The notes below the pieces were generated by a model. The model had not been told where the DNA came from. It was given only the letters and a program-made list of their open reading frames with translations, and ran no database searches. From Candidatus Pacearchaeota archaeon (lineage in GTDB: Archaea > Nanobdellota > Nanobdellia > Pacearchaeales > UBA284), in assembly GCA_026016245.1 (NCBI GenBank), contig CP061211.1:480001-512000 (forward strand): 32,000 nucleotides of DNA. The letters are read 5' to 3'. Shown here piece by piece: positions 3,509 through 27,866 of the stretch. Made by a program: the position numbers and the translations under genes. Position 1 is the first letter of the stretch. Every line of letters starts with the position of its first letter.

Positions 3509-3927
3509 AGATTAAAATGGAAGACATTGCCTGATGAAGAAAAAAATATGTTATATATGTCATTAATATCTATTTGTATTGGTAATGATTTCTATCTTAA
3601 AGCTGATAATGGTGGTTGTTTGGTAGTAGAAACAGCAAAAGAAAAAGAAGAGTTAAAACATTATTAGAAAAATCATTGTAAATAGGAATATAAATCTAAG
3701 TGTAAAGCTAATAAATCATAACTCATCCAAAAGATTCTTTACTTTTTAAAGATATTTTAATTCCAAGTTTTCTTATTTCAGCATAATTTTTTAATTTATC
3801 TATGGCCTCTTTTAACATAATTTATTTAAAGTGAACTTCTTTATAAATATTGCCAGGGAAAATGCCAACTTATGAAGAAAAACAATAAGAAGTAATAGCT
3901 CTCTTGAATTATGCTGGGATAGATTTG

Positions 3928-4274: not shown

Positions 4275-4441
4275 GATTTAGATTTTTTCATCTCTTCCAT
4301 CTTAGCCTTCCCCAGAAATCAGCTGAGGCTCAAATCACCTCTAAACTAGCAAGATTGTGGAATTTTTAAATATTATGGCTTGTGAACGAGAAAGATTTAT
4401 AAATAAGGACCAAATTGATATCTAATAGGAGGATTTTTGAA

Positions 4442-10145: not shown

Positions 10146-10304
10146 ATGGCTAAGGGAATTAATGGAAATAACAAGAGCACTATAAAACTCAGTAAAGAAA
10201 CTAAAGAAAAACTAATTAATTTAGACATCTCCCGAAAAAATAAGTCTTTTGAAGAGATAATTCTAGAATTAATTAAATCTTATGGGGAGAAAAATGGAAA
10301 ATGA
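10146..10304 (+). CDS. small (52 aa) RHH/VapB-like putative regulator or antitoxin, translationally coupled to hsdM
   Basis: Below the track size cut-off. Hand translation: [52 protein letters not shown]. The pattern (beta-strand TIKLS, then helix..KSFEEII.ELI) resembles small archaeal RHH/antitoxin-type proteins. The stop TGA 10302-10304 overlaps the hsdM ATG at 10301. Confidence 0.5.
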
Positions 10305-11836
10305 CAAATAATGGTGCAAATCTTGGTTTTGAACAAAAACTATGGCAAGCTGCTGATAAATTAAGAAGTAATATGGATGCTGCAGAATATAAGCATGTAG
10401 TTCTTGGCCTTATATTCTTAAAGTATATTTCTGATGCTTTTGAAGAAAGACATGAATATTTACAAGAGCATTTGCATGAAGGATGTGACCCTGAAGAGCC
10501 AGATGAATACAAAGAGGAGAATGTTTTTTGGGTTCCGCCAATAGCTAGATGGGATTATATTAAAAAAAATGCAAAAAAGCCAACAATAGGCGAAATTATT
10601 GATAAGGCTATGGAAGCCATAGAAAGAGATAATCCTTCTTTGAAAGGTGTTTTGCCTAAAAATTATGCAAGGCCTGGATTAAATAAACAAAGATTAGGAG
10701 AATTAATTGATTTAATTGGATCTATTGCATTAGGAGATTATGACAGTAGGTCTAAAGATATTTTAGGAAGAGTTTATGAATATTTTCTTGGCCAGTTTGC
10801 AGATGCAGAAGGAAAAAAAGGCGGGCAGTTCTATACCCCAAGATGTATAGTTAAAATTCTTGTTGAAATGATTGAACCTTATAAAGGAAGAGTCTTTGAT
10901 CCTTGCTGTGGTTCTGGAGGAATGTTTGTTCAATCTGAAAAATTCATTAAAGAGCATAGCGGGAGAATAGGGGATATTTCTATTTATGGCCAAGAATCAA
11001 ATCAAACAACATGGAAATTATGTAAAATGAATATGGCAATTAGAGGAATTGATGCTAATATTAAATGGGGAGATTCTTTCCATGATGACCAGCATAAAGA
11101 CTTAAAAGCAGATTTTGTTCTTGCTAATCCTCCCTTTAATGATTCGGACTGGAATGGACAGCTTTTACAAGAAGATGTAAGATGGAAGTTTGGGGTTCCA
11201 CCAACAGGAAATGCTAATTTTGCATGGGTTCAGCATTTTATTCATCATTTAAATCCTTCAGGAATAGCTGGTTTTGTTTTAGCTAATGGCTCAATGTCTT
11301 CTAATACATCAAATGAAGGGGAAATTAGAAAAAACATCATTAATGCTGATATGGTTGATTGCATGATTGCTCTTCCTAGCCAATTATTCTATAATACAAT
11401 GATTCCTGCTTGCTTATGGTTTGTTACAAGAGACAAAAAAGACAGTAAATTCAGAGACAGAAGAAACACAGTTCTTTTTATTGATGCCAGAAACATGGGA
11501 AAGATGATAGACAGAAGGCATAAAGAACTAACTGATGAGGAAATAAAGAAGATTGCAGACACGTATCATTCTTGGAGAGGAGAAAACAAACAAAAATACA
11601 AAGACATTCCAGGATTTTGCAAATCTGCCTCATTAAAAGAAATTGAAAAAAACAATTTCATCCTCACACCAGGAAGATATGTCGGAGCAAAAGAAGAGGA
11701 AGAAGATAAAGAAGTCTTTGATGAAAAGATGAAGAGATTGACTTCTGAACTTTCAGAACAGATGAAACAAGGGCAGAAACTAGATGAAGAAATAAAGAAG
11801 AATTTGGGGGGCTTGGTTGGAGGATTTAGAAGATGA
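10301..11836 (+). CDS. hsdM: Type I restriction-modification system, DNA methyltransferase subunit M
   Basis: 511 aa. HsdM N-terminal domain ([36 protein letters not shown]), AdoMet motif [10 protein letters not shown], catalytic LANPPFN. Confidence 0.95.
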
Positions 11837-13008
11837 AAAGATTCTTTGCTTGGATTAAAGAAAACGTTTTTCTTATTTTAGAATCAATTATTTTATTACT
11901 AATTCCTATTTTTAATTTTATTAGTTCACAAATTTTAATCTATCAGAAAATTATAAGTTGGGTTTTGTTTCTACTAATTCTCATTGATGTTTTGTTTAAG
12001 ATAAATGAAAAAATAAGGGAGAAGAAGAAAGAAAGAGCACTAAAAATGGAAAATGAAAAAAGAGGGGAAACTGAAAGAAAAAGATATGAAACTATAGAAG
12101 AAATGAAAAAGAATTTAGAAGAACAGAAAAATTTTAATTTAGAATACAAAGAAAAAAAGGAAAGATCCATAAAAATATTAAATAAATTCTTTAACGAAAG
12201 TCTACTAAATGAAGAGGATATTTTAAGTCTAGCGAAGTCATCTAGTTATTATATTCTTTTTATTTATAGTTGGCCTTTTCCAGAAATCAAAAATAAAAGA
12301 TATAAGTTCATAACAACTAGACAATACCCCCTCTTTTTAAATGATATCGGATTTACAAGAATGGGCAGTTCAAGAAGCACCTTTTTCATTATAAAAAAAG
12401 ATAGATTAGAAAAGAAATACCACAATATTGCAAGTTTTAAAAAATTTCTCAATAAGAATTTAGAAGAGATAAGAAAAGAAGAATTTAAAATGTATTTAGA
12501 AGAATTAAAAAAACAAGACAAGAAAGTATATACTAAATATTCAAAAAAGAGTTACTCTGAATATTTGAAAATAAATTTTCTACTACTTGAGAATATCATC
12601 CATTCTGGGAATCTTGGTCTTGTGAGTGGGGAGTATATTGGTCTTGGTGGGAAAAAACAAGTTGAAGAAATAAACAAACAAATTTTATCAGGAATAGAAC
12701 TTTCTGAAATTGACTTAAAAGAAAATGTTAAAATAAAGATTAGAGATTATTTTCAAAAGCAGGACTTTAATCTCTTACTAGAAGGAATTAAACAAAGAAC
12801 AATAAATAAAATTTCAAAATCGAGAGTTAAACTAAAAGACGAATTAAATATTGCTAATGTATTAGAAATAGCTGGAAAAAACAAACAGGATTTACAAAAA
12901 GCATTAGATAAAATTGGTATACCAAATGCTAAGAATCTCGCTACCAAGATGAAACAAATTGCAGAAGAATATTTAGAAGCATTAAACGATTTAAAGATAA
13001 ACCTTTAA
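11833..13008 (+). CDS. unknown 2-TM + coiled-coil protein embedded in the Type I operon
   Basis: 391 aa. Its ATG overlaps the hsdM stop (ATGA). It has two N-terminal hydrophobic helices, a K/E-rich segment ([38 protein letters not shown]) and an unassigned C-terminal region. Confidence 0.6.
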
Positions 13009-13014
13009 TAGAAA

Positions 13015-13057
13015 ATGAAACAACAAACAAAATTCAAGCAAACTGAAAATAAGGAAA
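13015..13057 (+). pseudogene. vestigial duplicate of the hsdS 5' end
   Basis: atgaaacaacaaacaaaattcaagcaaactgaaaataaggaaa aligns to the hsdS start at 14069-14109 (37 of 43 columns). It encodes MKQQTKFKQTE versus the hsdS MKSQTKFKQTE. The frame dies after 24 codons and is out of frame with ATG 13062. Confidence 0.65.
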
Positions 13058-13061
13058 CAAA

Positions 13062-14072
13062 ATGCCAACACAAACAGGTAAATCACTAATTGTAGTTGAT
13101 ACTAATATTATAAGAACCAAGCAAGATTGGGAATCAGATTTTTTTGAACTCTCGCCTAAAGGAACATTTACCGAATTAATTTATTACATAGAAAAAAATA
13201 ACTTACAAAATCTAGTTAATATTGCAATTCCTGAGATTGTAATTGAAGAGTTTTCTGAGTCTAAAAAAGAGAATTTTAATAATTCTTTAACTGGATTAAA
13301 GAAGAAGTTAGAACTTTTTAAAAAAATGCCTTGTTGTGATTTTTCAAATATAAAATTACCAGAAGAGTCATTTGATTATGGAAACTATATAACCCAAAAA
13401 ATAAATGAATTAATCACTGCTAAAAATTTTATTAAGATTATTAAGATAGATGCTACCAAGTCTCATGAGGTGTTAGAAGATCTAAAAAAAAGAGTTTTCG
13501 AAGGAAAAAAACCTTTCAAAAAGGGAAGCGATAGAGGATTTAAAGATTCATTAATTTGGCATTGTTTTTTGCATAATGTAGATGTAAATACTTTTGATTA
13601 TTTTTACTTTCTAAGTGAGAATTCAGAAGATTTTAATGAAGAATTAAAAGAAGAATTTGAGAGCAGATTTCAGAGGAATTTAAACTTCTTTACGGATGTA
13701 AAAGAAATGATTTCAAATCTAAATGAATATTATTATTTATATGAAGACTACCCAGAAATAATTGCTCATTTGCAAACGGACTATTTCAAGGGGCAATTAA
13801 TGGATTTTATATCTGATATCTTAGGTATAGGAATAAATAATTTTGAGATTATAAATTTTTGTAAAGGGATAGAAGAGATGAGTTTAGAAAAATTCTATGA
13901 ATTAGAATTACAAGAAGAATTCCCAGATGAAATAATAGAAATCCTAAAATTAATCCAAATTGAGATTAAGAATGAGGGTATTGAATATCTTGCTTTAGTC
14001 ATTTTTGATTTTTCATCGAATACAATAGTTGATGTAAGATTAAATAAGAAAGACGGGAGACTAGTAATATGA
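13062..14072 (+). CDS. PIN-like (DUF4935-type) putative nuclease embedded in the Type I operon
   Basis: 336 aa. N-terminal SLIVVDTNIIR, then IPEIVIEE, GFKDSLIWH and FLSENSEDF, which is the acidic-residue layout of PIN-like domains. The stop overlaps the hsdS ATG (ATGA 14069-14072). Confidence 0.55.
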   Translation: MPTQTGKSLIVVDTNIIRTKQDWESDFFELSPKGTFTELIYYIEKNNLQNLVNIAIPEIVIEEFSESKKENFNNSLTGLKKKLELFKKMPCCDFSNIKLPEESFDYGNYITQKINELITAKNFIKIIKIDATKSHEVLEDLKKRVFEGKKPFKKGSDRGFKDSLIWHCFLHNVDVNTFDYFYFLSENSEDFNEELKEEFESRFQRNLNFFTDVKEMISNLNEYYYLYEDYPEIIAHLQTDYFKGQLMDFISDILGIGINNFEIINFCKGIEEMSLEKFYELELQEEFPDEIIEILKLIQIEIKNEGIEYLALVIFDFSSNTIVDVRLNKKDGRLVI

Positions 14073-15325
14073 AATCCCAAACAAAATTCAAACAAACTGA
14101 AATAGGAAAAATCCCTGAAGGCTGGGAAATCTTGAGAGTAACGGATTTAGGGAGAGTTATTACGGGAAAAACTCCACCAACAAAAATAAAGGAATACTTC
14201 GGTTCAGATTTTCCATTCATAAAAATACCTGATCTGGGAAAGTCAGTTTATATTGAGAAATCTGAAACTATGCTCTCTAAAAAAGGAGCGGGATATATGG
14301 GTAACCTAAAGCTACCAAAAGATTCAGTGATGGTTTCATGTTTAGCAACAATCGGTAAAGTAGGCATTACAAAAAGAGATTCATTCACAAATCAGCAAAT
14401 AAACTCTTTAATTTGTAATAAAGATAAAGTCATCCCATTGTGGATATACTACTTTTTTAAGAATAATCTCTTTTATTTAGAAAGTTTGGGTGGCGGTGGT
14501 TCTGTTTACACAAACATTTCTAAAAGCCGGTTTGAGAACGCATCAATCCCTATTCCAAGGATAAAAGAACAGGAAAGGATTATTAATATCTTATTTGACT
14601 TAGATTCAAAAATCGAATTCAACCAACAAATGAACAAGAGTTTAGAAGCAATCGGCCAAGCAATCTTTAAGAGATGGTTTGTTGATTTTGAATTTCCAAA
14701 TGAAAAAGGCAAGCCATACAAAAGCTCAGGCGGAGAGATGGTTGAATCTGAATTAGGAAAGATACCGAAAGGATGGGGGGTTGGGAGATTTAAAGATATT
14801 TCAAAACTTCAGATGGGAATATCCCCAAAAGGCAATAGTTATAACGAAGATAGAAAAGGTATTCCTTTACTAAACGGGGCTGCGGATTTCTCAGGCAAAT
14901 TAATCTTACCAAAAAAGTTTACTACTGAGCCAATTAAAAAGTGCAATACGGGCGATTTAGTTTTTTGTATTAGGGCAACAATAGGAAATGTAACTTTTGC
15001 AGATAAAGAATTTTGTCTTGGTCGTGGTGTCGCAGCATTAAAAATAAATAATAATTTTAGAGAGTTTTTTTACTATTCCCTTATTGGTTCATTAGAAAAA
15101 ATGATTTCAAGTGCTACTGGAAGCGTAATCATGGGCTTGTCAAAGACAGATATAGAAGACTGCAAAATTATTATTCCTGATAATAATTTAATTAAGATTT
15201 TTAACAAGAATCTATTCTCATTTTTTGAAATGCAAAAAAAGCTTGATGAAGAAATTCAAAGCTTATCACAAATCCGAGACTCCCTTTTACCTAAATTGAT
15301 GTCTGGGAAGATTAGAGTTATTTAA
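14069..15325 (+). CDS. hsdS: Type I restriction-modification system, specificity subunit S
   Basis: 418 aa. Two target-recognition halves each open with KIPEGW / KIPKGW. A central conserved helix (EQERIINILFDLDSKIEFNQQMNKSLEAIGQAIFKRWFVDFEFP) and a C-terminal conserved helix (LSQIRDSLLPKLMSGKIRV) are present. Confidence 0.9.
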   Translation: MKSQTKFKQTEIGKIPEGWEILRVTDLGRVITGKTPPTKIKEYFGSDFPFIKIPDLGKSVYIEKSETMLSKKGAGYMGNLKLPKDSVMVSCLATIGKVGITKRDSFTNQQINSLICNKDKVIPLWIYYFFKNNLFYLESLGGGGSVYTNISKSRFENASIPIPRIKEQERIINILFDLDSKIEFNQQMNKSLEAIGQAIFKRWFVDFEFPNEKGKPYKSSGGEMVESELGKIPKGWGVGRFKDISKLQMGISPKGNSYNEDRKGIPLLNGAADFSGKLILPKKFTTEPIKKCNTGDLVFCIRATIGNVTFADKEFCLGRGVAALKINNNFREFFYYSLIGSLEKMISSATGSVIMGLSKTDIEDCKIIIPDNNLIKIFNKNLFSFFEMQKKLDEEIQSLSQIRDSLLPKLMSGKIRVI

Positions 15326-16088
15326 CATTATTTTTAGCCCTATCTAAAAAATCTATTATTCTTTGTCTTAGCCCATTCAAGATATTTCTGAAAGACTGCG
15401 GATTAACTAAGTAAGGTACAGGTTCATTTGGATCGACATTCAAATCTTTTACCATTAACTCCATTGGAGGAGCATTCATTACTATTCTTTGTTCTTTGGA
15501 ATATCTATCAACCCACTCCTCAATTTGCCTTATTGGTTGAGAAATAAACATGGGGATATCAAATCTTTCTATTTTCCCATTTTTTAAACCAATATTTAAT
15601 TCCGCTTCTATTCTTCTATATTGGGTTTCTTTATCTGATTTTTTCATCTTTAATCCTGTGTTCTTCTCTTCATCACCCCAATATTCACCATATCCTCTAA
15701 CTTCCTTATTTAACCATTTTTCATCATCATTCATCTTTAGTTTTTTAGCTAATCTCAAAGACATTTCAGATATTGTCGAGATTGACTTATTTTCATCAAG
15801 ATAATTTTCTATTTTACTTATTAGTTTTTTTGCGTTTGTTTCTTCTTCTCTTATTTCCTCCGAGAACGCTACCACTTTTTTACTTTCTTCTTTGAAATGA
15901 GTTATTTGAGAGTTTGTAACATTGCCAGTTATTTGAACTAATTGTGAGTTAGGAGAGTTGATAAGAAGTGCTTTTTGATTTTTCTCAATTTTAATAAGAT
16001 ATTTAACAGCAAATCCAAATCCTGCTAAGGAAACTATCAATAAGGCTATCTCTACTATATGTTCAATAAACCATTCTTCAAATGCCAT
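15318..16088 (-). CDS. membrane-anchored AbiTii-like protein, antisense inside the R-M locus
   Basis: The track ORF starts at TTG 16094; ATG 16088 (MAFEEWF) is preferred. N-terminal TM helix IVEIALLIVSLAGFGFAV. The segment LRLAKKLKMNDDEKWLNKEVRGYGEY...QYRRIEAEL resembles the AbiTii signature (W..EL.GY ... YR). Assigned from memory only. Confidence 0.45.
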   Translation of the reverse strand: MAFEEWFIEHIVEIALLIVSLAGFGFAVKYLIKIEKNQKALLINSPNSQLVQITGNVTNSQITHFKEESKKVVAFSEEIREEETNAKKLISKIENYLDENKSISTISEMSLRLAKKLKMNDDEKWLNKEVRGYGEYWGDEEKNTGLKMKKSDKETQYRRIEAELNIGLKNGKIERFDIPMFISQPIRQIEEWVDRYSKEQRIVMNAPPMELMVKDLNVDPNEPVPYLVNPQSFRNILNGLRQRIIDFLDRAKNNVK

Positions 16089-16180
16089 AAACAATCAATA
16101 CAAATTGATTATTTAATCTTTATGTAGTCTTTAAATCTATCAGAGAAAGAAGTTAAAAACCTCAAATTCCTTATTAAAAA

Positions 16181-19100
16181 ATGCCAAAAATCATAACAGA
16201 ATCTGATGTTGAAGAAAATGTCTTAATCATACTTGAAAAGCTTGGATATGAAATAATTCGTGGAGATAATGAAGAATATCTGCCTAGGGGAGGCAAGGCT
16301 TTGAGAGATGATTATAAAGATGTTGTTCTTGTTGACAAACTGCGATATGCTCTTAGAAAGATTAATCCTTCTGTTCCTGAAGAAGCAAGAGAAATGGCTT
16401 TAAAGCAAATATTGAGAGGCGAGAACCAGAAGCTTATAGCTGATAATGAAAGCTTTCATAAGATGCTTGTTAATGGCATAAGTATCCCTATAAGAAAAGC
16501 TGGAGAAGAAAGGCATGTTATTGTAAAACTTTTTGATTTTGAAAATCCTGAAAACAATGAGTTTACAGCAGTTAATCAGTTTACTGTAGAAGAAAATAAT
16601 ATTGAAAGAAGACCTGATGTTGTTTTATTTGTTAATGGAATCCCTTTAGTTATTCTTGAGCTAAAAAATTTAGCAGATGAAAAAGCAGATATATGGATAG
16701 CTTATGATCAATTTCAAACATATAAGGAACAATTGCCTTATTTATTCAGGTTTAATGAATTTCTAATTATTAGCGATGGATTAGAAGCAAGAGCAGGAAC
16801 AATAACTTCTGAAAAAGAGAGATTTATGCAATGGAAAACAATAAATGGAGAAAAACCAAAAAAAGGATTAATTGAAATTGAAGTTTTACTTAAAGGAATG
16901 TGTGATAAATCAAGAATTTTGGATATTATCAGAAATTTTATTGTTTTTGAAAAAGATAAAGAAGTAAAAAAGAAACTTGCTGCTTATCATCAATATTGGG
17001 CTACAAACAAAGCAATAGAATCATCAATAAAAGCAAGAAAAGGCAACAAAAAAGCAGGGGTTGTTTGGCATACTCAAGGTTCTGGAAAAAGTTTAACAAT
17101 GGTTTTTTATTCGGGAAAATTAGTAGGAGAATTTGATAATCCAACAATAATAGTTTTAACAGATAGAAATGATTTAGATGACCAGTTATTTGGAACTTTT
17201 GCAAGATGCAAGGATGTTCTAAGACAAACTCCTATTCAAGCTAATTCAAGAAAAGAATTGCAAAAATTATTGAAAGTATCTTCAGGAGGAATTGTATTTA
17301 CAACAATTCAAAAATTCTTTCCAGATGAAAACAGAGAAAAATATCCTGTTTTATCAGAAAGAGACAATATTATAGTAATAGCAGATGAAGCTCACAGAAG
17401 CCAGTATGGTTTTTCTGCTAAAATACTAAACAAACAAGATAAGACATTAATCACTTATGGTTATGCTAAATATTTAAGAGATGCTTTGCCAAATGCATCT
17501 TTTATTGGCTTTACTGGAACTCCTATTGAAAAGGCAGACAGATCAACCCCTGCAGTATTTGGAAATTATGTTGATAAATATGATATAGAAAGAGCTGTTG
17601 AAGATGGAGCCACTGTAAGGATCTTTTATGAAAGCAGATTAGCAAAATTAGAACTTAAACCAGAAGAAAGGCCTAAAATAGACAAAGAATTTGAAGAAGC
17701 CACAGAAGGAGAAGAAGTTGAAGGCAAAGAAAAATTAAAAAGCAAATGGGCAAGATTAGAGAAAGTTGCAGGTTCTCCAAAAAGAATTAAAAAAATAGCA
17801 GAAGATATAATTGAACATTTTGAATCAAAAACTGAAGTTTTAGAAGGTAAAGGCATGATTGTTTGCATGTCTAGAAGGATTTGTGTTGATTTATACAATG
17901 AAATAATAAGATTAAGGCCTAGATGGCATAATAAAGACGATAATAAAGGATTTATAAAAGTAGTTATGACTGGTTCTGCCTCTGATCCAAAAGAATGGCA
18001 AGAGCATATAAGAAATAAAAATAGAAGAAAGCAAGTAGGAGATAATTTTAAAGATCCTAAACATGAGATTGGATTATTAATTGTTAGAGATATGTTTTTA
18101 ACAGGGTTTGATGCTCCTTCTCTCCATTCAATGTATCTAGACAAATCAATAAAAGGCCATACATTAATGCAAGCAATAGCAAGAGTAAATCGTGTTTATC
18201 CAGGAAAAGAAGGAGGATTAATTATTGATTATATGGGTGTTGGAGCAGAACTAAAAAAAGCATTAATAAATTACACTGAAAGTGGCGGAAAAGGAAAACC
18301 GACTTTTGACCAAGCTCAAGCAGTTAAGCTAATGATTGAAAAATATGAAGTTGTTAGAGATATGTTTCATGGATTTAATTATAAAAAATTCTTTGAACTC
18401 AAACCAAATAAGAGAATTTCTTTTATTCCAAATGCAATGGAGCATATACTAAAAGAAAGGGGCAAAAAAGAGAGATTTGAAAGAGAAGTAACTGCTCTCC
18501 TAAAAGCATTTTCTTTAGCTGTTCCTCATGACAAAGCTATTAATATAAAAGAAGATGTTGGACTTTTTCAAGCAATAAAATCTGCAATATTTAAAACAAC
18601 TGAAGTAACAAAAAGAAAAGAGGAAAAGTTTGATACTGCAATAAAGCAGATATTATCTAAAGCAGTGATCTCTGATAGAATTATTGATATTTTTGAAGCA
18701 GCAGGAATTCAAAAACCAGAATTATCTATTTTATCAGAAGGATTTTTAGCAGAAGTTAAAGAAATGCCACAGAAAAATTTGGCTTTTGAAGCCTTGAAAA
18801 AGTTATTGAATGATGAAATAAGAGTTATTTCTAAAAAGAATATGGTTCAAGGAAAATCTTTCATGGATTTACTAGATAAAACAATAAAAAGATATACTAA
18901 TAGAAGCATAGAAGCTGCCCAAGTAATAGAAGAATTAATTGAATTAGCAAGAAAAATAAGAGATGAAAAAGGCAGAGGAAAAGAACTTAAAATAAATGAT
19001 GATGAATTGGCATTTTATGATGCTCTTGGAGTTAATGACAGTGCAGTTAAAGTTTTGGGAGATGAAATATTAAGAAAAATTGCATTAGAGCTGACAAAAA

Positions 19101-19282
19101 TGATAAGAAATGGTGTTACAATAGATTGGACTCAAAGAGAAAGTGTTCAAGCAAAAATTCGTGTAAATGTAAGGAAAATTTTAAAAAAATATGATTATCC
19201 TCCGGATAAACAAAAGAAAGCAGTCGAGACAGTATTAAAACAAGCTGAATTAGTTGCTAAAAATTGGGCAGAAAAAGATTAA
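16181..19282 (+). CDS. hsdR: Type I restriction-modification system, restriction/helicase subunit R
   Basis: 1033 aa. N-terminal PD-(D/E)xK ([20 protein letters not shown]), Walker [15 protein letters not shown] box [14 protein letters not shown], motif [10 protein letters not shown]. Confidence 0.95.
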
Positions 19283-20656: not shown

Positions 20657-21148
20657 ATGAAAACACAACAAATAAAAGATGTAAAAAATAGAGAAGAAAT
20701 AATTATTGGATTTGATACTGGGGCAGTTCGTGGTACAGTAGATATCATGAGTGATGAAAATTTAGCAAAAGCAAATGTAAAGAGAGAAGACATACAGAAT
20801 ATAACTCCTTTTATTGGTGATTTAAATAAAAATCTTTATACAGAAGTTGGAATAGCTTCTAGCGAACATCCTTGTGCTGGAAGTACTGGAGTAAATATTT
20901 TAACAAATGATGGAAGAAAAGCAAGTATACAAAGAATTTTTTATAAGGATAAAACACAACATGATAAAACTACACACTGGAATCAAGAACAATGGATACA
21001 ACCAGTAGGAAGAGAAAGAGAACAGGACAACTCTTTTAAAGCAGATCCTAATCATAAAATTCCCATCTCTGAATCCTTAAAATTTTATATTATTGATGGT
21101 GATGGAAAGAAGAAAGAAAAAGAAGTCTTTAGTTCATCAAAAAAATAA
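20657..21148 (+). CDS. hypothetical protein
   Basis: 163 aa. GAGGAG lies 4 nt upstream of the ATG. No motif recognised. Confidence 0.5.
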   Translation: MKTQQIKDVKNREEIIIGFDTGAVRGTVDIMSDENLAKANVKREDIQNITPFIGDLNKNLYTEVGIASSEHPCAGSTGVNILTNDGRKASIQRIFYKDKTQHDKTTHWNQEQWIQPVGREREQDNSFKADPNHKIPISESLKFYIIDGDGKKKEKEVFSSSKK

Positions 21149-21170
21149 ACCAAAACCCTTAAATATTTCT
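21145..21170 (+). repeat. left copy of perfect 26-bp direct repeat ATAAACCAAAACCCTTAAATATTTCT
   Basis: Identical to 23694-23719. Overlaps the TAA stop of 20657..21148. Confidence 0.9.
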
Positions 21171-21208
21171 TATTCTTAGTTAGATAAAGGTTAAGAGGAA
21201 AGTTTGAA

Positions 21209-21721
21209 ATGGGTGAAATAATCAAATTTTTAAAAATAGGGCAGGACATACTTTTCCACACATTTAATTGGATAATCCCTTTATTAATTCCAGCTATAAT
21301 AGTTATTTTTCTTGGTTGGTATTTAAAATCTTATTTTATAATTATACCTATCTTAACCAGCCAGATTTATTTATATGATGTTATCCTTCTTAGCACAAAT
21401 ATTGGTTTACTCAAATCCTCAAGAAAGAAAAAAGATGAATTTAAAGAGAAAAATGTAGCGGTTTCTATGTGTTTATTGCCTTTAGGATTATTTTTCTTAA
21501 CTTTTTCTTTGATAATAAGTTTTTCCCTAAAGACATATGTTGGTAATTGGGATATTTTACTATTTATTTTAGCTTTGCCATTTACATATTCGTCTATTCT
21601 TTTATTAAGTAAAAACAAACTAGCTTCCTTTGTTGTTCAATCACCAACTGAGCTTTCTCAAAATAGAGCCAAAGTAAATAAAGAATTGTCTTACAAAATT
21701 TTAAGGGGGGATAAAAAATGA
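21209..21721 (+). CDS. polytopic membrane protein (about 4 TM), first gene of the DGQHR cassette
   Basis: 170 aa. Several hydrophobic helices. Leader GAGGAAAGTTTGAAATG. The stop overlaps the next ATG (ATGA 21718-21721). Confidence 0.55.
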   Translation: MGEIIKFLKIGQDILFHTFNWIIPLLIPAIIVIFLGWYLKSYFIIIPILTSQIYLYDVILLSTNIGLLKSSRKKKDEFKEKNVAVSMCLLPLGLFFLTFSLIISFSLKTYVGNWDILLFILALPFTYSSILLLSKNKLASFVVQSPTELSQNRAKVNKELSYKILRGDKK

Positions 21722-22818
21722 GTAAAGAATATATAATTATAAAGAAATTAATAAAGATAAAACAACCTATGGGGGATTTCCTAGTTGGAGTCATGAAGGC
21801 CAAAGACTTACTTAAAATTACTAAAGCGAACCCCCGTCATTATAATGAAGAATTGGATACTTATGCGGGAATACAAAGAGAAATAAATGATAAAAAAATA
21901 AAACAATTAAAAAAATTTATCATGACAAGTGATGCCACTTTTCCAAACACAATAATTGGGGCATTAAAACCAGATAAATTTGATTTTGATGGAAAAAAAA
22001 GTACTCTTAAAATAGAAAAAAATCCAGAATCATTTGCTGTAATTGATGGCCAACATAGGTTAGCTTCTTTTAAAAATGAATCTTTAATTAGTAATGATTT
22101 TGATTTAATTGTATCTTTTTTCTTAGGCTTAGATCTAGAAGAACAGGCATATCTTTTTTCTATAATAAATATGACTCAGAAAAAATTAAATCCTTCGTTA
22201 GTTCAAGATTTAACAGAGCTTTTTACTATTATCACTCCTGAAAAACTTGCGCATAATTTAGCAACAGTTTTCAATAATGAGAAAAAAAGTCCATGGTTTA
22301 AAAAAATAAAAATGTTGGGTAAAAATGTGGGTTCTTATAAAGGGGTTCTTTCCCAGTATACTTTTACTAAAGGGATAACGGAACTTATAGCAGATGTGGA
22401 GAGATATTACGAAATAAGAGATATTTTAAAAAATAATAAAAAAAGAAAAAGTCTTGAGTCTTTAAAAATGGACTCAGAAAAATATGTGCTTTGGAAACAT
22501 TATATAAATGAAGAAGATAATTTTATTTATAAATTATTAAATGTGTATTTTATAACAATAAAAAAAGTTTTCCAAAAAGAATGGGGAAATAAAAATTATA
22601 TTCTAACTAAAACCACGGGATATAACGCTTTTATGAGACTATTAAGGGATCTCCATAAAAAAGCAGAAAATCAAAAATGTGAGATGACAGAAGAATTTTT
22701 TGAGAAATACTTAAAAATAATCAAACGGAAAATTAAGCCATTAATCTCAAAATATTATAATCCGGGAAAACAAGGAGAAAATAGATTATATGAGGCTTTA
22801 AAAAAAGCACTTAAATAA
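21718..22818 (+). CDS. DGQHR-domain protein (DndB-like, ParB/Srx superfamily)
   Basis: 366 aa. Literal DGQHR motif in FAVIDGQHRLASF. Upstream are GIQREINDKKIKQLKKFI and FPNTIIGAL, matching the DndB/DGQHR domain layout. Confidence 0.75.
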   Translation: MSKEYIIIKKLIKIKQPMGDFLVGVMKAKDLLKITKANPRHYNEELDTYAGIQREINDKKIKQLKKFIMTSDATFPNTIIGALKPDKFDFDGKKSTLKIEKNPESFAVIDGQHRLASFKNESLISNDFDLIVSFFLGLDLEEQAYLFSIINMTQKKLNPSLVQDLTELFTIITPEKLAHNLATVFNNEKKSPWFKKIKMLGKNVGSYKGVLSQYTFTKGITELIADVERYYEIRDILKNNKKRKSLESLKMDSEKYVLWKHYINEEDNFIYKLLNVYFITIKKVFQKEWGNKNYILTKTTGYNAFMRLLRDLHKKAENQKCEMTEEFFEKYLKIIKRKIKPLISKYYNPGKQGENRLYEALKKALK

Positions 22819-22866
22819 TCTTAATTAGAAAATTTTTTATATTGTAAAAGCTTGTGATTATTACAA

Positions 22867-23691
22867 ATGATAATACCAACATTTTTAAAATGGGCTGGAG
22901 GAAAAAAGAGGCTAATAAAAGATATAGAGCGATCTCTCCCAAAAAAAATTGATAGATATTTTGAGCCTTTTCTTGGTGCTGGAGCAATTTTCTTTTATAT
23001 TAAACAAAAATATAATCCTAAATTTTGTGTGATTTCGGATATAAATAAAGACCTTATAGATACCTTTAAGGCAGTCATAGATAATCCAAAAGAATTAATT
23101 AAATTTTTAAAATATTTCAAAAAAAATAATTCAAAAGAATTTTATTATCGTGTCAGAGACAAATTTAATAAAGGAAAATTTAAACAAATACAAAAAAGTG
23201 CGGCTTTTATTTATCTAAATAAAACATGTTATAATGGATTATATAGAGTTAATTCTAAAGGAGGATTTAATGTTCCTTATGGTAAATATAAAAATCCTGA
23301 AATATTTAATGAAAAAACAATTATGTTTGCTAGCAGATTATTAAAAAATGTTAGAATAAAATGTCAAAACTATGAAAAAATTAAAGATTATATTAGAAAA
23401 AATGATTTTGTTTATTTAGATCCTTGTTATGATCCTTTAAAAAAGACAAGTTTTGCAAATTATACTCCTAAAAGATTTTGTGATGTGGATAATGAAAAGC
23501 TATCTCTTTTTGTTGCTGAATTAAAAAGAAGAAATTCAAAGGTTCTCTTAAGTAATAATATAACAAAAAATGTTAAGAGATTATATCCAAAAAACCAATT
23601 TAATATAATAAAGGTTTGGTGTTCTAGAAGTATTAATTGTATTGGGGAAAAAAGAGGTAAAATTCCAGAGCTTCTAATTAAAAATTATTAG
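22867..23691 (+). CDS. dam: Dam-family N6-adenine DNA methyltransferase with variant DPCY catalytic motif
   Basis: 274 aa. N-terminal FLKWAGGKKRL, AdoMet motif EPFLGAGAIF, catalytic tetrapeptide VYLDPCYDP (codons 23419-23430) in place of DPPY. Confidence 0.85.
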   Translation: MIIPTFLKWAGGKKRLIKDIERSLPKKIDRYFEPFLGAGAIFFYIKQKYNPKFCVISDINKDLIDTFKAVIDNPKELIKFLKYFKKNNSKEFYYRVRDKFNKGKFKQIQKSAAFIYLNKTCYNGLYRVNSKGGFNVPYGKYKNPEIFNEKTIMFASRLLKNVRIKCQNYEKIKDYIRKNDFVYLDPCYDPLKKTSFANYTPKRFCDVDNEKLSLFVAELKRRNSKVLLSNNITKNVKRLYPKNQFNIIKVWCSRSINCIGEKRGKIPELLIKNY

Positions 23692-23693
23692 TC

Positions 23694-23719
23694 ATAAACC
23701 AAAACCCTTAAATATTTCT
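23694..23719 (+). repeat. right copy of perfect 26-bp direct repeat
   Basis: Identical to 21145-21170. Starts 2 nt after the dam stop and overlaps the stop of the convergent gene 23718..24365 by 2 nt. Confidence 0.9.
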
Positions 23720-24365
23720 AAGATATTTTTTGTATCAGCTTTCTCCCTCCAGTCAATATTTTTATTTCTTGTAATCCTTCTTTTTTTAAAATTAAGTCTA
23801 CATAATGCGATCTTATATAAGAATGAAAAAGTTCTGATAGTAATATTTTCAAATCTTTACATACCACTCTATATAGTAAAGTCGCTATCCTTTTTCTTCT
23901 AAAAGGAGGAATGACAAATAAATCATATATTTTAAATTGAGGTTCTTTTTTTAAATAAATTCTTTTAACACAAATATACCCCACAATGAAATCATATTTA
24001 TTTACCACCATATAAACAAAATTATTTGGATTTATATGGTTCGGAGTCGGAATACTACAGAAATCTAATCCTTGTTCGATTTTAGAAAAAAAGGTTAGAT
24101 TACTTAACGCTTTTTTAAACTTATGTGGCGAATCCCACGTAATTTTGAAAATTCTAAATTGTTCTTTATTTGGCTTTGTTTTTCTTATTAATTTACAATA
24201 AAAAAATGGATTAATTGGTTCTTTTGTTGTATAATGTTCAATACATGCTCCAGGTCTTTTATATTCTTTATAACATGTAGGGCATAAATAAATTTTTGGA
24301 TTTCCTTCTCCAACTAAAAAGAAATTAATAAATTCATCTCCTACACAAAGAAAATATTCTGGCAT
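23718..24365 (-). CDS. Zn-finger + putative GNAT-like acetyltransferase
   Basis: 215 aa. N-terminal CPTCYKEYKRPGACIEHY (CxxC..CxxH). C-terminal LFVIPPFRRKRIATLLYRVV resembles GNAT motif A, but with the Gly positions substituted. Confidence 0.45.
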   Translation of the reverse strand: MPEYFLCVGDEFINFFLVGEGNPKIYLCPTCYKEYKRPGACIEHYTTKEPINPFFYCKLIRKTKPNKEQFRIFKITWDSPHKFKKALSNLTFFSKIEQGLDFCSIPTPNHINPNNFVYMVVNKYDFIVGYICVKRIYLKKEPQFKIYDLFVIPPFRRKRIATLLYRVVCKDLKILLSELFHSYIRSHYVDLILKKEGLQEIKILTGGRKLIQKIS

Positions 24366-24442
24366 CTTCTAATCCAGTTAGTTTAGTTTATTAACTTTTC
24401 TTAAACCAAAAAAGATAAATAGTTGTTAGTTTTTGTTGTGGT

Positions 24443-24706
24443 ATGGCTAAGAGGAAAAAGAAAAAAGTTTCATTTTGGACCACTAAAAAAGTAAAAAAAC
24501 CAGTAAAAGTTAAGTTTGTAGATAGAGAAGGCAATCTTGTTTCATTTACAGCTATGAAAGAAATAAAAAAACCCACAAAAGTTATTTTTTATAAATCAAA
24601 TGGTAAAAGAATAAGAAGAATAAAATGTCCTTATTGTTCTCATTCATTTTTTACTAAAAGAAAAATTGTTTATTATTGTCCTTATTGTGGAAAAAGGTTA
24701 AAATGA
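24443..24706 (+). CDS. Lys-rich small protein with C-terminal zinc ribbon
   Basis: 87 aa. KKPVKVKF / KKPTKVIF internal repeat. CPYC-17 residues-CPYC. The stop overlaps the next ATG (ATGA 24703-24706). Confidence 0.55.
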   Translation: MAKRKKKKVSFWTTKKVKKPVKVKFVDREGNLVSFTAMKEIKKPTKVIFYKSNGKRIRRIKCPYCSHSFFTKRKIVYYCPYCGKRLK

Positions 24707-25731
24707 CAGACTATAAAACGATAGAAACTAAAAAATTACATAAATTAATATATAAAGAGAGAGGAGTAAGAGTTAAACTTAGACAATTAACACACATTAA
24801 AAAAATAATAAATTCTGGTTGTTTATTAAACCTTGAATTTAAAAAAAATCAAGAGGAATTATTTAACATATTTGTAAAATATAGTAATGTATTAGAACAA
24901 ATAAAGGCTTTGAATAAGTTTTTTTTTGACTTAATAAAAACAAAAAAAGAATATCCAAAATTTCGTCTAACTATCAAAACACATTTTGCATTACGTACTA
25001 TTTTTACATTATTAAATGTTTCAAAAAATACTGCAGTATACAAAAATTTTGATAAAAAATTACTTAAAAAAGTAAATTTTGATGATTTTTTAAAAATAAC
25101 AAAAAAAATTATTACTGGTTTAGAAAAATTAAATTCTGAAATTATAGATCTTGAAGAATGGTTTAATGATAAATATAACATATCTTTAACAGAAGGGGGA
25201 CATCTTTATTTTTGCCCTAACTGTGGAAGATTTATTGGAGAAAAATTTAGAAGAATAAAATGTTTTTGTGGTAAAAATATAAATGAGGGTAGAAATACAT
25301 TGAGAAAAGAAGCAAGATATTTAAAAGATGAAATTTATAATTTTTTTACAAAAGGGTTTTGGTTAGAAGAAGCTATATGTGAGGTCTTAAAGCAATTAAG
25401 TGATAAAAGATATTGTGGGATAGATGTATTAGGAAGAAGCGGAATATTGCATGAACTGGATATTCTTACGGCTTTAGATAATAAAAAGATTTTTTTAATA
25501 GCAGAATGTAAAGATACAGATATTGATCTTAAAGATGTTATGAAATTAAATGTTAAAAATGAAGAAATTAATAGCCATATAAGTTGTATATTTACTACTG
25601 AAAAAGTATCTGATGAGAGGATCCTACAGTTTTGTAAATATTATAAGGTATTGATTTTTGACAAAGTATTTAATAGAAAATCAAGAGATATTTTAAATAA
25701 AATAAAGCAGGAAATAGATCTAATAAGGTAA
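24703..25731 (+). CDS. zinc-ribbon protein with C-terminal PD-(D/E)xK (Mrr/Hjc-like) nuclease core
   Basis: The track ORF starts at TTG 24676; ATG 24703 (MTDYKTIE) is preferred. CPNCGRF...CFCGKNI ribbon, then GIDVLGRSGILHELDILTALDNKKIFLIAECKD (D...ExK). Confidence 0.5.
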   Translation: MTDYKTIETKKLHKLIYKERGVRVKLRQLTHIKKIINSGCLLNLEFKKNQEELFNIFVKYSNVLEQIKALNKFFFDLIKTKKEYPKFRLTIKTHFALRTIFTLLNVSKNTAVYKNFDKKLLKKVNFDDFLKITKKIITGLEKLNSEIIDLEEWFNDKYNISLTEGGHLYFCPNCGRFIGEKFRRIKCFCGKNINEGRNTLRKEARYLKDEIYNFFTKGFWLEEAICEVLKQLSDKRYCGIDVLGRSGILHELDILTALDNKKIFLIAECKDTDIDLKDVMKLNVKNEEINSHISCIFTTEKVSDERILQFCKYYKVLIFDKVFNRKSRDILNKIKQEIDLIR

Positions 25732-25785
25732 AATCCTCAAGTATCCTAATTCGTTTAATACATCTTAGGAGAACTTTTTAGAGAA

Positions 25786-26127
25786 TTATGTATGAATTGG
25801 AGAAACTAGCTGTTCTGTTAGTTCTGGTGCAAGAGTCTTTTTAGTAAGAATCCAATCCAGCTTGATGAGATTGCTAATAAAAATATTTTTAATATTTAAC
25901 TTGAAATACTCGGATTTCCCAACTTTTCTAGTTTTTATTAATATTCCTTCCCTGATCCATTCTTTAAAAAAAACTTTAATAGAATTATAACTAACATTGC
26001 TTTCTCTTGCTATTTCAGTCATAGGATAATCAAAAAAATGATTTTCTATTAAGAAATCTAAAACTCTTAATTTGGGCGTATCTCCAAAGACCTCTAAAAA
26101 AATAGACTTATTTTTTTTCTTTTTCAT
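25786..26127 (-). CDS. winged-helix transcriptional regulator
   Basis: 113 aa. PKLRVLDFLIENHFFDYPMTEIARESNVSYNSIKVFFKEWIREGILIKTRKVGKSEYFKLN is a typical archaeal wHTH layout. Confidence 0.65.
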   Translation of the reverse strand: MKKKKNKSIFLEVFGDTPKLRVLDFLIENHFFDYPMTEIARESNVSYNSIKVFFKEWIREGILIKTRKVGKSEYFKLNIKNIFISNLIKLDWILTKKTLAPELTEQLVSPIHT

Positions 26128-26225
26128 AAAAATAAGTGGTATAAGTAGTATTTAAATATTTCTATTAAATAAAAGAATATTTCAAAAATAGAAACATTTA
26201 AAAATAATTGAAGTTTGTATTTTAA

Positions 26226-26495
26226 ATGAAAAAAATAGATGATTTAGAAAAAGCACAGTTATTGTTTAAGCTAGTTAGAGGAAAGAAAAATTGGGGCGCT
26301 TGTTATGATAGATTAGAGCATTTCAAAAGATTCCAGAATTTAGATAATATTATTAAAGAGCTTGCTAAAATTGGCTGGATTACCCTAACTAAAAAAACAA
26401 AATTAAAAGCCATATCTGCTAATCCAAAATTTAAAAAAAAGATTATTGAATTCATAGAAGATAAAATGCCTTATTTGAAAGGAGAGCTTAAATAA
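26226..26495 (+). CDS. hypothetical small protein
   Basis: 89-aa track ORF, divergent from the wHTH gene. Confidence 0.45.
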   Translation: MKKIDDLEKAQLLFKLVRGKKNWGACYDRLEHFKRFQNLDNIIKELAKIGWITLTKKTKLKAISANPKFKKKIIEFIEDKMPYLKGELK

Positions 26496-26498
26496 AAA

Positions 26499-26618
26499 AT
26501 GGTTTCTAGAAAGACAAGAGAAAGAATATTGAAAGAGAATAAAGAGCTTTTCAAAGCTTTAGAAGAATATGATAAGACTGGAAAGCCAATTTCTAGGATA
26601 ATTGAGGAAAAATTATAA
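26499..26618 (+). CDS. possible 39-aa ORF (MVSRKTRERILKENKELFKALEEYDKTGKPISRIIEEKL)
   Basis: Below the track cut-off. AGGAG at 26472-26476 (about 22 nt upstream). Starts 3 nt after the upstream stop. Confidence 0.3.
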   Translation: MVSRKTRERILKENKELFKALEEYDKTGKPISRIIEEKL

Positions 26619-26708: not shown

Positions 26709-27065
26709 ATGGTGAATTCAATTTATGAGTATGTTTCTGAAAAGACAACAATATTCGGGGGTTTTGATTATGATTCTTGCGAGCTCTTTACAAAGAATAA
26801 TAAAGAATATTATGTTTATCTGGGGCTTCCAATGCTTAACCCTAAAGGCAATGTGCAATTGTTGATTATAAATGAAAAAGATGATAATAAGTGGTATTTC
26901 AGACATATAAGAAAAGACATTAGTGAAACAGAAGATGGCTATGGCATTAATGTAAAAGAGTATAATAAGATTGTCAATGAAACAATAGATAAAGAATATG
27001 AAGTTAACCCCAAAAATCTTGAGGAGATTTTATTGAATGTTATTGAGGATCTAGAGATTGTCTAA
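26709..27065 (+). CDS. hypothetical protein
   Basis: The track ORF starts at TTG 26640; ATG 26709 (MVNSIYEYV) is preferred. The 3' end overlaps the recombinase 3' end by 15 nt. Confidence 0.45.
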   Translation: MVNSIYEYVSEKTTIFGGFDYDSCELFTKNNKEYYVYLGLPMLNPKGNVQLLIINEKDDNKWYFRHIRKDISETEDGYGINVKEYNKIVNETIDKEYEVNPKNLEEILLNVIEDLEIV

Positions 27066-27866
27066 TGGATTCTTGACTTTCTTTATTTCTTCTGTGCTTA
27101 CATGAGTGTAGATTTGTGTTGTGTTGAGGTTTTCATGGCCTAAAAGAACTTGAATTATTCTTATGTCTGTTCCTGATTCTAAAAGATGTGTTGCATAACT
27201 GTGTCTTAAAGTGTGAGGAGTGACTTTTTTCTGGATATTTGCATTTTCTGCTGTTTTTTTGATTATTTTTTGTATGTTTCTTGTTGTGAATGGCTTGTCT
27301 TTTGAGAAAAGGTATTGGTTTTTGGGATGTTTTTCTATATAATTTTGTAATTCATCTATTAATTTTTCTGGTAATGTAAAAAACCTGTCTTTTTTGCCTT
27401 TTCCTTTTTTCACTATCCCTGTTTTTTCCTGCAGATTAAGATCCTGAGGTTTAAGATTTACTAATTCGCTGACTCTTAAACCTGTTGAGTATAGGAATTT
27501 TATCATAAGTTTTGATTTTCTTGTTTGTGATGCATCTATAAGGCTTTTTATCTCATCTTTTGTTAAAACTGAAGGTAGTGTTTTGTCTTTTTTTGGCCTT
27601 TTGATGTCTTTTGTTAAATCCTGCTTTAAAATAGCTATAGAAGCGAACTTTATTGCAGCTAAAGCTAAAATTATTGAACTTGAAGCTTTGTCTGACATTG
27701 ATGCTAGAAAGTTTTTAACATCTTCCTCACTTAACTGTTCAGGATCTTTGTTTGTTGATTCTAAAAGTTTTTTGTTAAAATAAAGATAATTTCTTATAGT
27801 TAAATTGCTTCTTTTTATTAATTTGAGTTCTGTTTCAAGTTTTTTCAGATATTCCTCTTTTTGCAT
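27051..27866 (-). CDS. tyrosine recombinase/integrase (XerA/XerC/D-like)
   Basis: 271 aa. N-terminal SAM-like core-binding domain. The catalytic region has GLRVSEL, HTLRHSYATHLLESGTDIRIIQVLLGHENLNTTQIYTHV (R..HxxR..Y). Confidence 0.9.
   Translation of the reverse strand: MQKEEYLKKLETELKLIKRSNLTIRNYLYFNKKLLESTNKDPEQLSEEDVKNFLASMSDKASSSIILALAAIKFASIAILKQDLTKDIKRPKKDKTLPSVLTKDEIKSLIDASQTRKSKLMIKFLYSTGLRVSELVNLKPQDLNLQEKTGIVKKGKGKKDRFFTLPEKLIDELQNYIEKHPKNQYLFSKDKPFTTRNIQKIIKKTAENANIQKKVTPHTLRHSYATHLLESGTDIRIIQVLLGHENLNTTQIYTHVSTEEIKKVKNPLDNL

Follow-up and report, generated by a model that had tools for sequence, protein, structure and literature searches.

In a 32-kb stretch of the genome of a Candidatus Pacearchaeota archaeon (GenBank CP061211.1, positions 480,001 to 512,000; this full stretch is called the window below, and all open reading frame (ORF) coordinates refer to it), we found a repeat-bounded cassette of three genes encoding a membrane protein with four transmembrane segments (the TM protein), a DGQHR-domain protein and a Dam-family DNA methyltransferase (MT). 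Comparison with related loci, from DPANN archaea and bacteria of the candidate phyla radiation (CPR) to Escherichia coli, shows that the TM-DGQHR pair, and not the trio, is the true conserved core, and that this two-gene core is plugged into writers of chemically different DNA marks, either sulfur in the backbone or methylation of adenine. The reading that we favour, with a probability of roughly 0.45, is that of a writer-reader-membrane module akin to the phosphorothioate (PT)-sensing proteins DndI and SspE, in which the membrane partner would replace the HNH nuclease. The elements of the cassette are as follows:

21145-21170, plus strand: left copy of a perfect 26-nt direct repeat (ATAAACCAAAACCCTTAAATATTTCT), overlapping the stop of an upstream ORF (20657-21148)
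21209-21721, plus strand: TM protein of 170 aa with four hydrophobic segments
21718-22818, plus strand: DGQHR-domain protein of 366 aa, with the literal FAVIDGQHRLASF present
22819-22866, plus strand: spacer of 48 nt between the DGQHR and methylase genes
22867-23691, plus strand: Dam/DpnM-family N6-adenine DNA methyltransferase of 274 aa, with motif I FLGAG
23694-23719, plus strand: right copy of the direct repeat, overlapping the stop of a convergent GNAT gene (23718-24365, minus strand)

The features that an initial annotation of this segment had described, namely three co-oriented genes, an ATGA overlap, a literal DGQHR motif and a 48-nt gap, are all in the sequence. The stop codon of the TM gene (TGA, 21719-21721) overlaps the ATG of the DGQHR gene at 21718, and through this overlap the two genes are probably translationally coupled. 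The same annotation had viewed the trio as a self-contained unit, which the repeats bear out: the left copy begins 64 nt 5' of the first gene and the right copy 3 nt past the last, so that a perfect 26-nt direct repeat brackets exactly the three genes. Just two copies occur in the window even when 3 mismatches are allowed, with none expected from shuffled sequence, and the sequences flanking the repeats on their outer sides do not align with each other. The trio is therefore a single inserted cassette of ~2.5 kb (21145-23719), and the repeats look like the scar left when it inserted between two convergent genes. No recombinase is encoded within the cassette, metagenome and viral contigs contained no exact match to the 26-mer as an empty site or with other cargo, and no relatives of the flanking GNAT gene were found. 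Direct repeats of 21-77 nt also flank cassettes of writer and TM-DGQHR genes elsewhere (L084, L038, L028, L020, L016 and L041), including a 21-mer on either side of an MT-DpnII-TM-DGQHR-MT cassette at L084; the cassette is horizontally mobile as a whole unit. Inside it, the spacer before the methylase gene holds an A/T-rich, TATA-like box (TTTTTTATAT, ~22833-22842) ~25 nt 5' of the methylase ATG, and reading of the spacer sequence revealed no Shine-Dalgarno sequence. The box may be a separate archaeal promoter yielding a leaderless methylase mRNA; a scan for sigma-70 promoters and terminators is uninformative here, since the host is an archaeon.

A scan of one genome per species yielded 536 confirmed DGQHR relatives, and 80 loci were kept. 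At 66 of these 80 loci, an ORF of 140-310 aa, predicted to contain two or more TM segments, ends at the start of the DGQHR gene. An iterative hidden Markov model (HMM) grown from the window TM protein recovered 67 ORFs from the 80 loci, all ending at the DGQHR start, and matched none of the ~3,900 other ORFs. It also matched the upstream ORF at six of seven separately fetched metagenome or plasmid loci (L081-L083 and L085-L087), the seventh being recovered by phmmer. The overlap between the TM and DGQHR genes is exactly 4 nt in 29 of the 67 cases, and the distances among TM proteins are correlated with those among DGQHR proteins (r = 0.77). The TM protein is an obligate partner of DGQHR, and the view of the trio as the unit therefore stands for the repeat-bounded cassette but not for the conserved core, which is the TM-DGQHR pair and is linked to dnd genes in 30 of the 80 loci.

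The TM protein evolves fast. The window copy has no match in Pfam, NCBIfam or PADLOC, a word-based homologue search returned only the query itself, and no Pfam family covers the TM partners, the family being detectable only by context-guided iterative HMMs. The positions of the four hydrophobic segments are conserved, and the family alignment contains no conserved residue. By the positive-inside rule the protein is predicted to have both termini in the cytoplasm (N-in/C-in), with a basic cytoplasmic loop at residues 67-81 and a basic C-terminal tail of 36 aa. The identity AgrB, the name given to the E. coli partner by PGAP, is not supported, as none of 46 TM partners matches Pfam AgrB (E <= 0.01) and there is no conserved His/Cys pair.

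Partner genes were scored within 6 kb of the DGQHR gene, with neighbour clusters annotated by Pfam:

30 of 80 loci: dndC/dndD/dndE (or dndEi)/dndA, six of them also with canonical DndB
19 of 80 loci: Dam-family methylase, comprising 13 tight MT-TM-DGQHR cassettes and 6 loci with a DpnII endonuclease
31 of 80 loci: neither dnd nor Dam-family genes, some pairs standing alone amid housekeeping genes

The 13 tight cassettes lack a DpnII endonuclease and have housekeeping flanks, for example uvrB and lysR, and the six loci with both Dam and DpnII usually carry a DpnA-like second methylase. Bacterial cassettes of the MT-TM-DGQHR kind include those of L028, L043 and Acinetobacter pTR3_1. Partner type tracks the clades of the DGQHR tree, and the distances among methylases follow those among DGQHR proteins (r = 0.58, a value reached by 0 of 2000 Mantel permutations). 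In the window clade nearly every locus has a D12-class methylase. The DGQHR protein and this class of methylase are thus co-conserved elsewhere, a point on which the initial annotation had let its proposal depend. The window gene order, TM-DGQHR-MT, recurs without DpnII at five independent loci with 41-60% DGQHR identity (L002, L081, L088, L089 and L090), among them another Pacearchaeota (L089) and a locus with a DUF6996/6997 endonuclease candidate (L088). At L003, L005 and L091 a DpnII cassette is placed convergently, as is an N6_N4 methylase at L083. The writer and the pair often overlap or sit a few nucleotides apart, and the pair is even found between the endonuclease and methylase genes of a DpnII cassette. 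Since approximately half of the close relatives carry a DpnII endonuclease and a second methylase within the same cassette, the module may have derived from GATC restriction-modification (RM) systems or serve them as an accessory. On a 15-kb Acinetobacter plasmid the pair lies 3' of a BglII/BstYI-family RM system that also includes a helix-turn-helix (HTH) controller, and on pRiA4 it is near another system of this family. The recurrence of both pair and trio across many unrelated lineages makes the arrangement more than chance. In sister cassettes, proteins with DUF6996/DUF6997 domains (with or without DUF7226) take the position of DpnII (L020, 3351-4631; L088, 5977-6738), and these may be an unrecognised family of GATC restriction endonucleases.

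In the dnd islands, 24 of the 30 loci have the pair with no canonical DndB nearby, often in the co-directional order dndC-dndD-dndEi-TM-DGQHR. At the six loci with canonical DndB, the pair adjoins an upstream protein of 1,350-1,724 aa; four of these six large proteins cluster as one HerA/DUF87 family, annotated by Pfam via the L017 representative only. In E. coli 55989, dptF-dptG-dptH-TM-DGQHR faces dndE-dndD-dndC-dndB, and the pair lies on the restriction side of the island. The E. coli TM partner matches the TM HMM at E = 1e-7, and the window DGQHR protein is ~30% identical to its E. coli counterpart. The family to which the latter belongs, TIGR04172, goes back to phylogenetic profiling by Haft's group in 2011; in Serratia its gene lies between dptH and dptE (PMC3226654). 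Salmonella Cerro 87 has DndI in the slot that the pair takes in E. coli. DndI is a ParB-like NTPase with a DGQQR motif fused to an HNH nuclease, a PT sensor that acts in defence with dndBCDE (PMC11662687). In position, the TM-DGQHR pair therefore substitutes for an effector with proven sensing of modification. DndI, SspE and GmrSD-BrxU proteins combine a DUF262 NTPase with a DUF1524 HNH domain; they are ParB-like, carry a DGQxR motif and read modifications, as we presume for the pair. In contrast to them, the window protein has DGQHR rather than DGQQR and no HNH/DUF1524 domain, with a separate 4-TM protein instead, and its mark would be N6-methyladenine (m6A) rather than PT. We rejected the identification of the window protein itself as DndI, which is a DUF262-DUF1524 protein of 656 aa with DGQQR. 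Because the pair is found beside phosphorothioate genes in other microbes, it probably reads its neighbour's mark, whichever DNA mark that neighbour writes.

In the common E. coli lineage of the 55989 type (L093, 9663-10823), an in-frame stop splits the DGQHR gene into pieces of 101 and 268 aa. At least two strains at ~99.5% identity annotate it as a single gene, and the intact versions, as in strain MEI7BO1-21, are named 'DNA phosphorothioation-associated DGQHR protein 1'. A matching region is present in 178 of 5,426 complete E. coli genomes.

The window itself contains no phosphorothioation partner, as had been noted at the outset. Probes for DndA, B, C, D, E and Ei gave no tblastn match, PAPS_reduct and DndE had no Pfam match among the window ORFs, and neither a canonical DndB nor a DndH/DptH-like gene was found in the 32 kb by tblastn and Pfam. 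The Pfam scans covered the 28 larger window ORFs, the unscanned ORFs of at least 90 aa all being 120 aa or shorter. No Dpd or Ssp gene turned up in these scans, although no Dpd- or Ssp-specific probes were run, and there was no TGT-like (DpdA) ORF among the window ORFs scanned. As tblastn queries, DpnII (three proteins), DUF6996/6997 (two) and a single BglII-family protein likewise gave no significant match in the 32 kb.

DGQHR and other ParB-like proteins are fixtures of Dnd and Dpd systems, where their roles are disputed. The DGQHR and Dam-family calls of the initial annotation were upheld by HMM scores. The window DGQHR protein reaches 175.5 bits with TIGR03187 (DGQHR domain; cut-off 58.85), which places it within that family. 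TIGR04172 is the only model that matches it end to end (187.9 bits, residues 11-366 on model positions 3-381 of 381), with a score below the equivalog cut-off of 450, which puts the window protein in the broader family surrounding TIGR04172 but outside the equivalog. E. coli members of TIGR04172 share the upstream TM partner; they reside in dnd/dpt loci, whereas the window protein is linked to a DpnM-type methylase. Similarity to DpdB (NF041060) also extends over the full length, with 71.8 bits in NCBIfam (below the cut-off of 300) and 78 bits in PADLOC, and in both proteins a helical C-domain follows a ParB-like ATPase domain; DpdB differs in having no membrane partner, and its DpdA/TGT gene is not among the scanned window ORFs. 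The match to DndB (PF14072, 50.1 bits) covers the N-terminal half only, at profile positions 5-158 of 338, and there was no match to TIGR03233 at E <= 0.01. Consistent with this, hhalign comparison with six canonical DndB sequences aligned approximately the first 168 residues with a probability of 96.5%, and the C-terminal halves did not align. A profile search of 1.84 billion representatives retrieved 724 clusters at E <= 1e-30 (clusters defined at 50% identity, so that 724 is a lower bound) and 3,248 at E <= 1e-10, indicating a large family.

The protein consists of a ParB/Srx-fold N-domain (~1-136), which holds the GIQR, DATFPN and DGQHR motifs, and an all-helical C-domain (~140-366). VIDGQHRL occupies residues 108-115, and D110-R114 are invariant across 67-80 relatives. 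The invariant residues overall (Q16, G51, Q53, R54, P76, D110-R114, N151, G201, W289 and G301) concentrate in these three ParB-type motifs for binding of nucleoside triphosphates (NTPs). An AlphaFold2 model (predicted local distance difference test score, pLDDT, 91.8; predicted template modelling score, pTM, 0.84) shows a beta/alpha N-domain followed by a helical C-domain. Foldseek matches in the PDB were weak and exclusively ParB-like (PadC, ParB), no solved structure matched by sequence, and viral predicted structures gave DndB-like, GmrSD_N/DUF262, AIPR and ParB-like matches. Modelled alone, the C-domain reached a pLDDT of 96.4 with no PDB match (best E = 4.4), and it shows no recognisable HTH; the protein contains no HNH, PD-(D/E)xK or SspE-type motif. 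A HEPN or nuclease role has been put forward for DndB (PMC3632139); we rejected such an identity as unsupported for the C-domain here, which has no conserved Rx4-6H or HNH motif and no PDB match for a confident model. By analogy with DpdB, DndB and the N-domains of SspE and DndI, the DGQHR protein is probably a dimeric, DNA-embracing NTPase switch; DpdB is a DNA-stimulated ATPase dimer that has been modelled around double-stranded DNA (PMC10164549). One family member (P0133) has a C-terminal pentapeptide-repeat extension.

The third gene of the cassette belongs to the Dam family, with 266.4 bits against TIGR00571 (cut-off 114.85), 202.6 bits against PF02086 (cut-off 22) and 298 bits against the PADLOC model MTase_II. 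The initial label of a Dam-like methyltransferase can be sharpened, the enzyme being a DpnM-type RM methylase: its nearest solved relative is DpnM (2DPM, 198.6 bits), compared to 140 bits for E. coli Dam. Since it is closest to DpnM, GATC is its likely target, a specificity also suggested by the DpnII endonucleases in sister cassettes. The DpnII cassette comprises DpnM, DpnA and DpnII and acts at GATC. The window's relatives hold a DpnII endonuclease (PF04556) and a DpnA-like N6_N4 methylase, whereas the window has no recognisable endonuclease or second methylase; DpnII systems as described, for their part, have no TM-DGQHR pair. In addition, motif IV of the window methylase is DPCY rather than the usual DPPY. 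The same variant is found at L002, L081 and L089, in sequences ~57% identical, and all other cassette methylases have DPPY, among them those of L003, L005, L084, L088, L090 and L091. DPCY thus marks four DPANN/CPR cassettes without an endonuclease candidate, and DPPY is found wherever DpnII or DUF6996/6997 is present, a correlation that could reflect an altered activity or specificity.

The favoured reading joins these components in the following way. The DpnM-type methyltransferase would be the writer, marking self DNA most likely as G(m6A)TC. The membrane partner, made in a fixed ratio with the reader through the overlapping genes, would probably hold the reader at the membrane. On methylated self DNA, hydrolysis of NTP would free the DGQHR reader, and on unmodified incoming DNA, from a virus or plasmid, the reader would remain engaged. 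The engaged reader would then act via its membrane partner, either by perturbing the membrane, leading to abortive infection or dormancy, or by trapping or blocking DNA at cell entry. One and the same reader pair would be re-used with different writers, be it Dnd phosphorothioation or m6A. The initial annotation had cast methylation as the self mark, DGQHR as a sensor and the TM protein as an effector, and it is in this sense that we infer their roles.

Should the pair indeed read modification and act via the membrane, it would represent a new coupling of epigenetic self-marking to immunity, and a function would be assigned to an unstudied gene pair inside the well-studied dnd islands of E. 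coli. The window trio is the smallest such system; it is framed by the scars of its own insertion, and its mark, probably GATC methylation, is easily switched on and off in E. coli, making it an unusually tractable entry to what DGQHR proteins do. The DGQHR family, its annotation and its dnd link were already known. Three features are undescribed in the searchable literature, namely that the membrane partner is obligate, that PT writers are exchanged for m6A writers from clade to clade, and that there is a minimal three-gene form bounded by repeats: the DGQHR-mentioning literature searched contained no description of the TM-DGQHR pair or its Dam-linked version, in agreement with the initial impression that the architecture lacks a published characterisation.

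Several observations weigh against this reading. No experiment exists on any member of the TM-DGQHR family, and DndB, the DGQHR protein studied in most depth, with which the reader shares its N-domain, is reported to be a transcriptional repressor that limits PT levels and not a sensor of foreign DNA (PMC4507180). The atypical DPCY motif of the window methylase also counts on this side. Two of the 31 loci that lack a dnd or Dam-family gene have an N6_N4 methylase (L038, L056), and some pairs stand alone amid housekeeping genes (L010, L014, L025 and L030), so that the pair may work without a dedicated mark. The in-frame stop in the 55989 lineage implies that DGQHR can be lost without obvious harm. 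Furthermore, the co-inheritance of methylase and pair could stem from shared mobility instead of shared function, and the absence of any conserved TM residue suits an anchor as well as an effector.

A broader version, which we consider rather doubtful, would have the pair act as a modification-agnostic reader-effector, a membrane-tethered ParB-fold NTP switch that reads any mark set by the writer beside it, be it PT or G(m6A)TC, and stops unmarked invading DNA without a nuclease, by membrane-based abortive infection or by capture at entry. If so, a nuclease-free kind of restriction would occur in organisms as distant as DPANN archaea, CPR bacteria and E. coli.

It is unlikely that the pair is instead a DndB-like regulator, with DGQHR binding a cassette promoter or operator to tune the modification enzyme (and the endonuclease) and the TM protein merely sequestering or anchoring it. 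Such a role has precedent, as DndB shares the DGQHR ParB/Srx N-domain, likewise stands beside DNA-modification genes and represses dndBCDE (PMC4507180). Controller genes are frequent in RM cassettes, and since the pair is present without canonical DndB at 24 of the 30 dnd loci, where it is often co-directional, it could replace DndB there. However, at the six other dnd loci and in E. coli 55989 a canonical DndB is already present, with the pair on the restriction side, and the Acinetobacter plasmid cassette already has its HTH controller. There is nothing to regulate for stand-alone pairs or for those beside defence-type genes, which include a SIR2_2 protein of 1,221 aa (L026), HD-domain proteins (L040, L045) and a 776-aa DndB-like protein with a HEPN_Swt1 domain (L044). 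Moreover, no recognisable HTH is present in the C-domain, which bears no relation to its DndB counterpart, and a regulator leaves unexplained the obligate membrane partner, which DndB lacks. The coexistence with canonical DndB on the restriction side, the occurrence with SIR2, HD and HEPN proteins and the obligate membrane partner are the reasons why we favour the writer-reader-membrane module over regulation.

We judge equally improbable an independent pair that hitch-hikes with modification genes, as a Kiwa-like membrane defence or exclusion system that works independently of modification, the window methylase being a leftover of a DpnII system. Stand-alone pairs do exist, and pairs occur beside varied defence genes, on plasmids and on Tn7-like elements (the L047 neighbours are of Tn7 type and include a TnsE-C-domain gene and a ParB_N-like gene). 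Complete DpnII systems in half of the close relatives make loss of the endonuclease plausible. Kiwa is a complete system built from a 4-TM protein and a DNA-binding protein, with the KwaA gene placed just 5' of that for a DNA-binding protein of ~300-370 aa and with its action at the membrane, a layout as seen here (bioRxiv 10.1101/2023.02.26.530102). Unlike this layout, the sequences are unrelated: with PADLOC the DGQHR protein matched only DpdB, the TM protein matched nothing and no Kiwa model came up, KwaB is a DUF4868 protein and not ParB-like, and Kiwa is not tied to modification genes. Hitch-hiking is further opposed by the clade-specific, non-random partner types, by the close or overlapping placement of writer and pair, including pairs lodged within DpnII cassettes, and by the five independent loci that retain TM-DGQHR-MT without a DpnII endonuclease. 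In addition, no other neighbour class approaches the frequencies of dnd (30) or Dam (19).

A cryptic restriction enzyme, in which the DGQHR N-domain would be a nuclease or nickase cutting unmethylated GATC DNA in the manner of a type II RM system, is very unlikely. In its favour, ParB/Srx proteins with DNase or nickase activity have been reported, as cited in PMC10853773 and PMC12839542, MT-only cassettes have no other endonuclease, and GATC is depleted in the window, with 54 sites observed compared to 92 +/- 9 in shuffled sequence and ~94 expected from a Markov model (observed/expected ratio, O/E, 0.57). This depletion is, however, equalled by GTAC and CCGG (O/E 0.53 each, with small counts; CTAG is not depleted), and it may reflect lineage history, the three motifs together suggesting past restriction pressure in the lineage. 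Pooled across loci, the GATC O/E was 0.43 for nine cassettes with a DpnII endonuclease, compared to 0.89 for 16 cassettes with a methylase and no DpnII endonuclease, and 0.83 for dnd-linked loci. The TM-DGQHR pair therefore imposes no DpnII-like selection against GATC, which argues against a simple site-specific endonuclease and against a simple form of the nuclease role that the initial annotation had allowed for DGQHR; the lack of GATC avoidance with MT-only cassettes fits a non-cleaving reader. A nuclease would also be redundant at loci that carry a DpnII or BglII-family endonuclease along with the pair, dnd systems with other target motifs make use of this pair too, and, as described above, the protein carries no nuclease motif and its C-domain has no solved nuclease relative. 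GATC O/E was 0.32-0.38 in a stand-alone Bacteroidota clade (L010, L012, L014 and L026), where there is no dnd, Dam-family or N6_N4 gene among the clustered or annotated genes within 6 kb; a GATC RM system may act in trans in these genomes.

Finally, it is scarcely credible that the DGQHR NTPase is a modification cofactor that helps the writer reach DNA, as DpdB does for preQ0 insertion by DpdA, for despite the full-length similarity to DpdB and the need for DpdB in modification (PMC10164549), Dam/DpnM methylases act alone, stand-alone pairs exist, most Dam- and dnd-bearing genomes have no pair, and the membrane partner is left unexplained.

By Pfam, the surroundings of the cassette form a defence island that includes RadC, Fic, a Cas4-like nuclease and a type I RM system into which PIN and AbiTii genes are embedded. 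A tyrosine recombinase gene (27051-27866) lies 3.3 kb downstream of the trio and may be a housekeeping XerA-type gene rather than an element integrase. Downstream of the GNAT gene, the segment 24443-25731 holds an 87-aa Zn-ribbon ORF followed by a 351-aa orphan ORF (24676-25731) with a second Zn-ribbon, and the two share a 37-nt imperfect repeat spanning an 'RRIKC' motif. We considered the orphan ORF, which has a PD-(D/E)xK-like 'ELD...ECK' stretch, as the missing endonuclease and rejected it, as it has no homologue among 5.8 billion proteins, is missing from all related loci and lies outside the repeat-bounded cassette. Towards the start of the window, a segment of ~730 nt (3670-4400) has no ORF of at least 40 aa on either strand and no Rfam match, tRNA or repeats. 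The type I RM operon (10301-19282) is broken up by additional genes:

10301-11836: hsdM
11833-13008: ORF of 391 aa, unknown, inside the operon
13062-14072: PIN_12 protein, inside the operon
14069-15325: hsdS
15318-16094: AbiTii gene, antisense within the operon
16181-19282: hsdR, its end overlapped by the RadC gene

The G+C content falls to 0.23-0.25 across 22500-26500, compared to 0.29-0.33 in the rest of the window. This low-G+C segment spans the methylase gene, the GNAT gene, the orphan ORFs and a Csa3-like winged-HTH gene, and its composition suggests recently acquired DNA.

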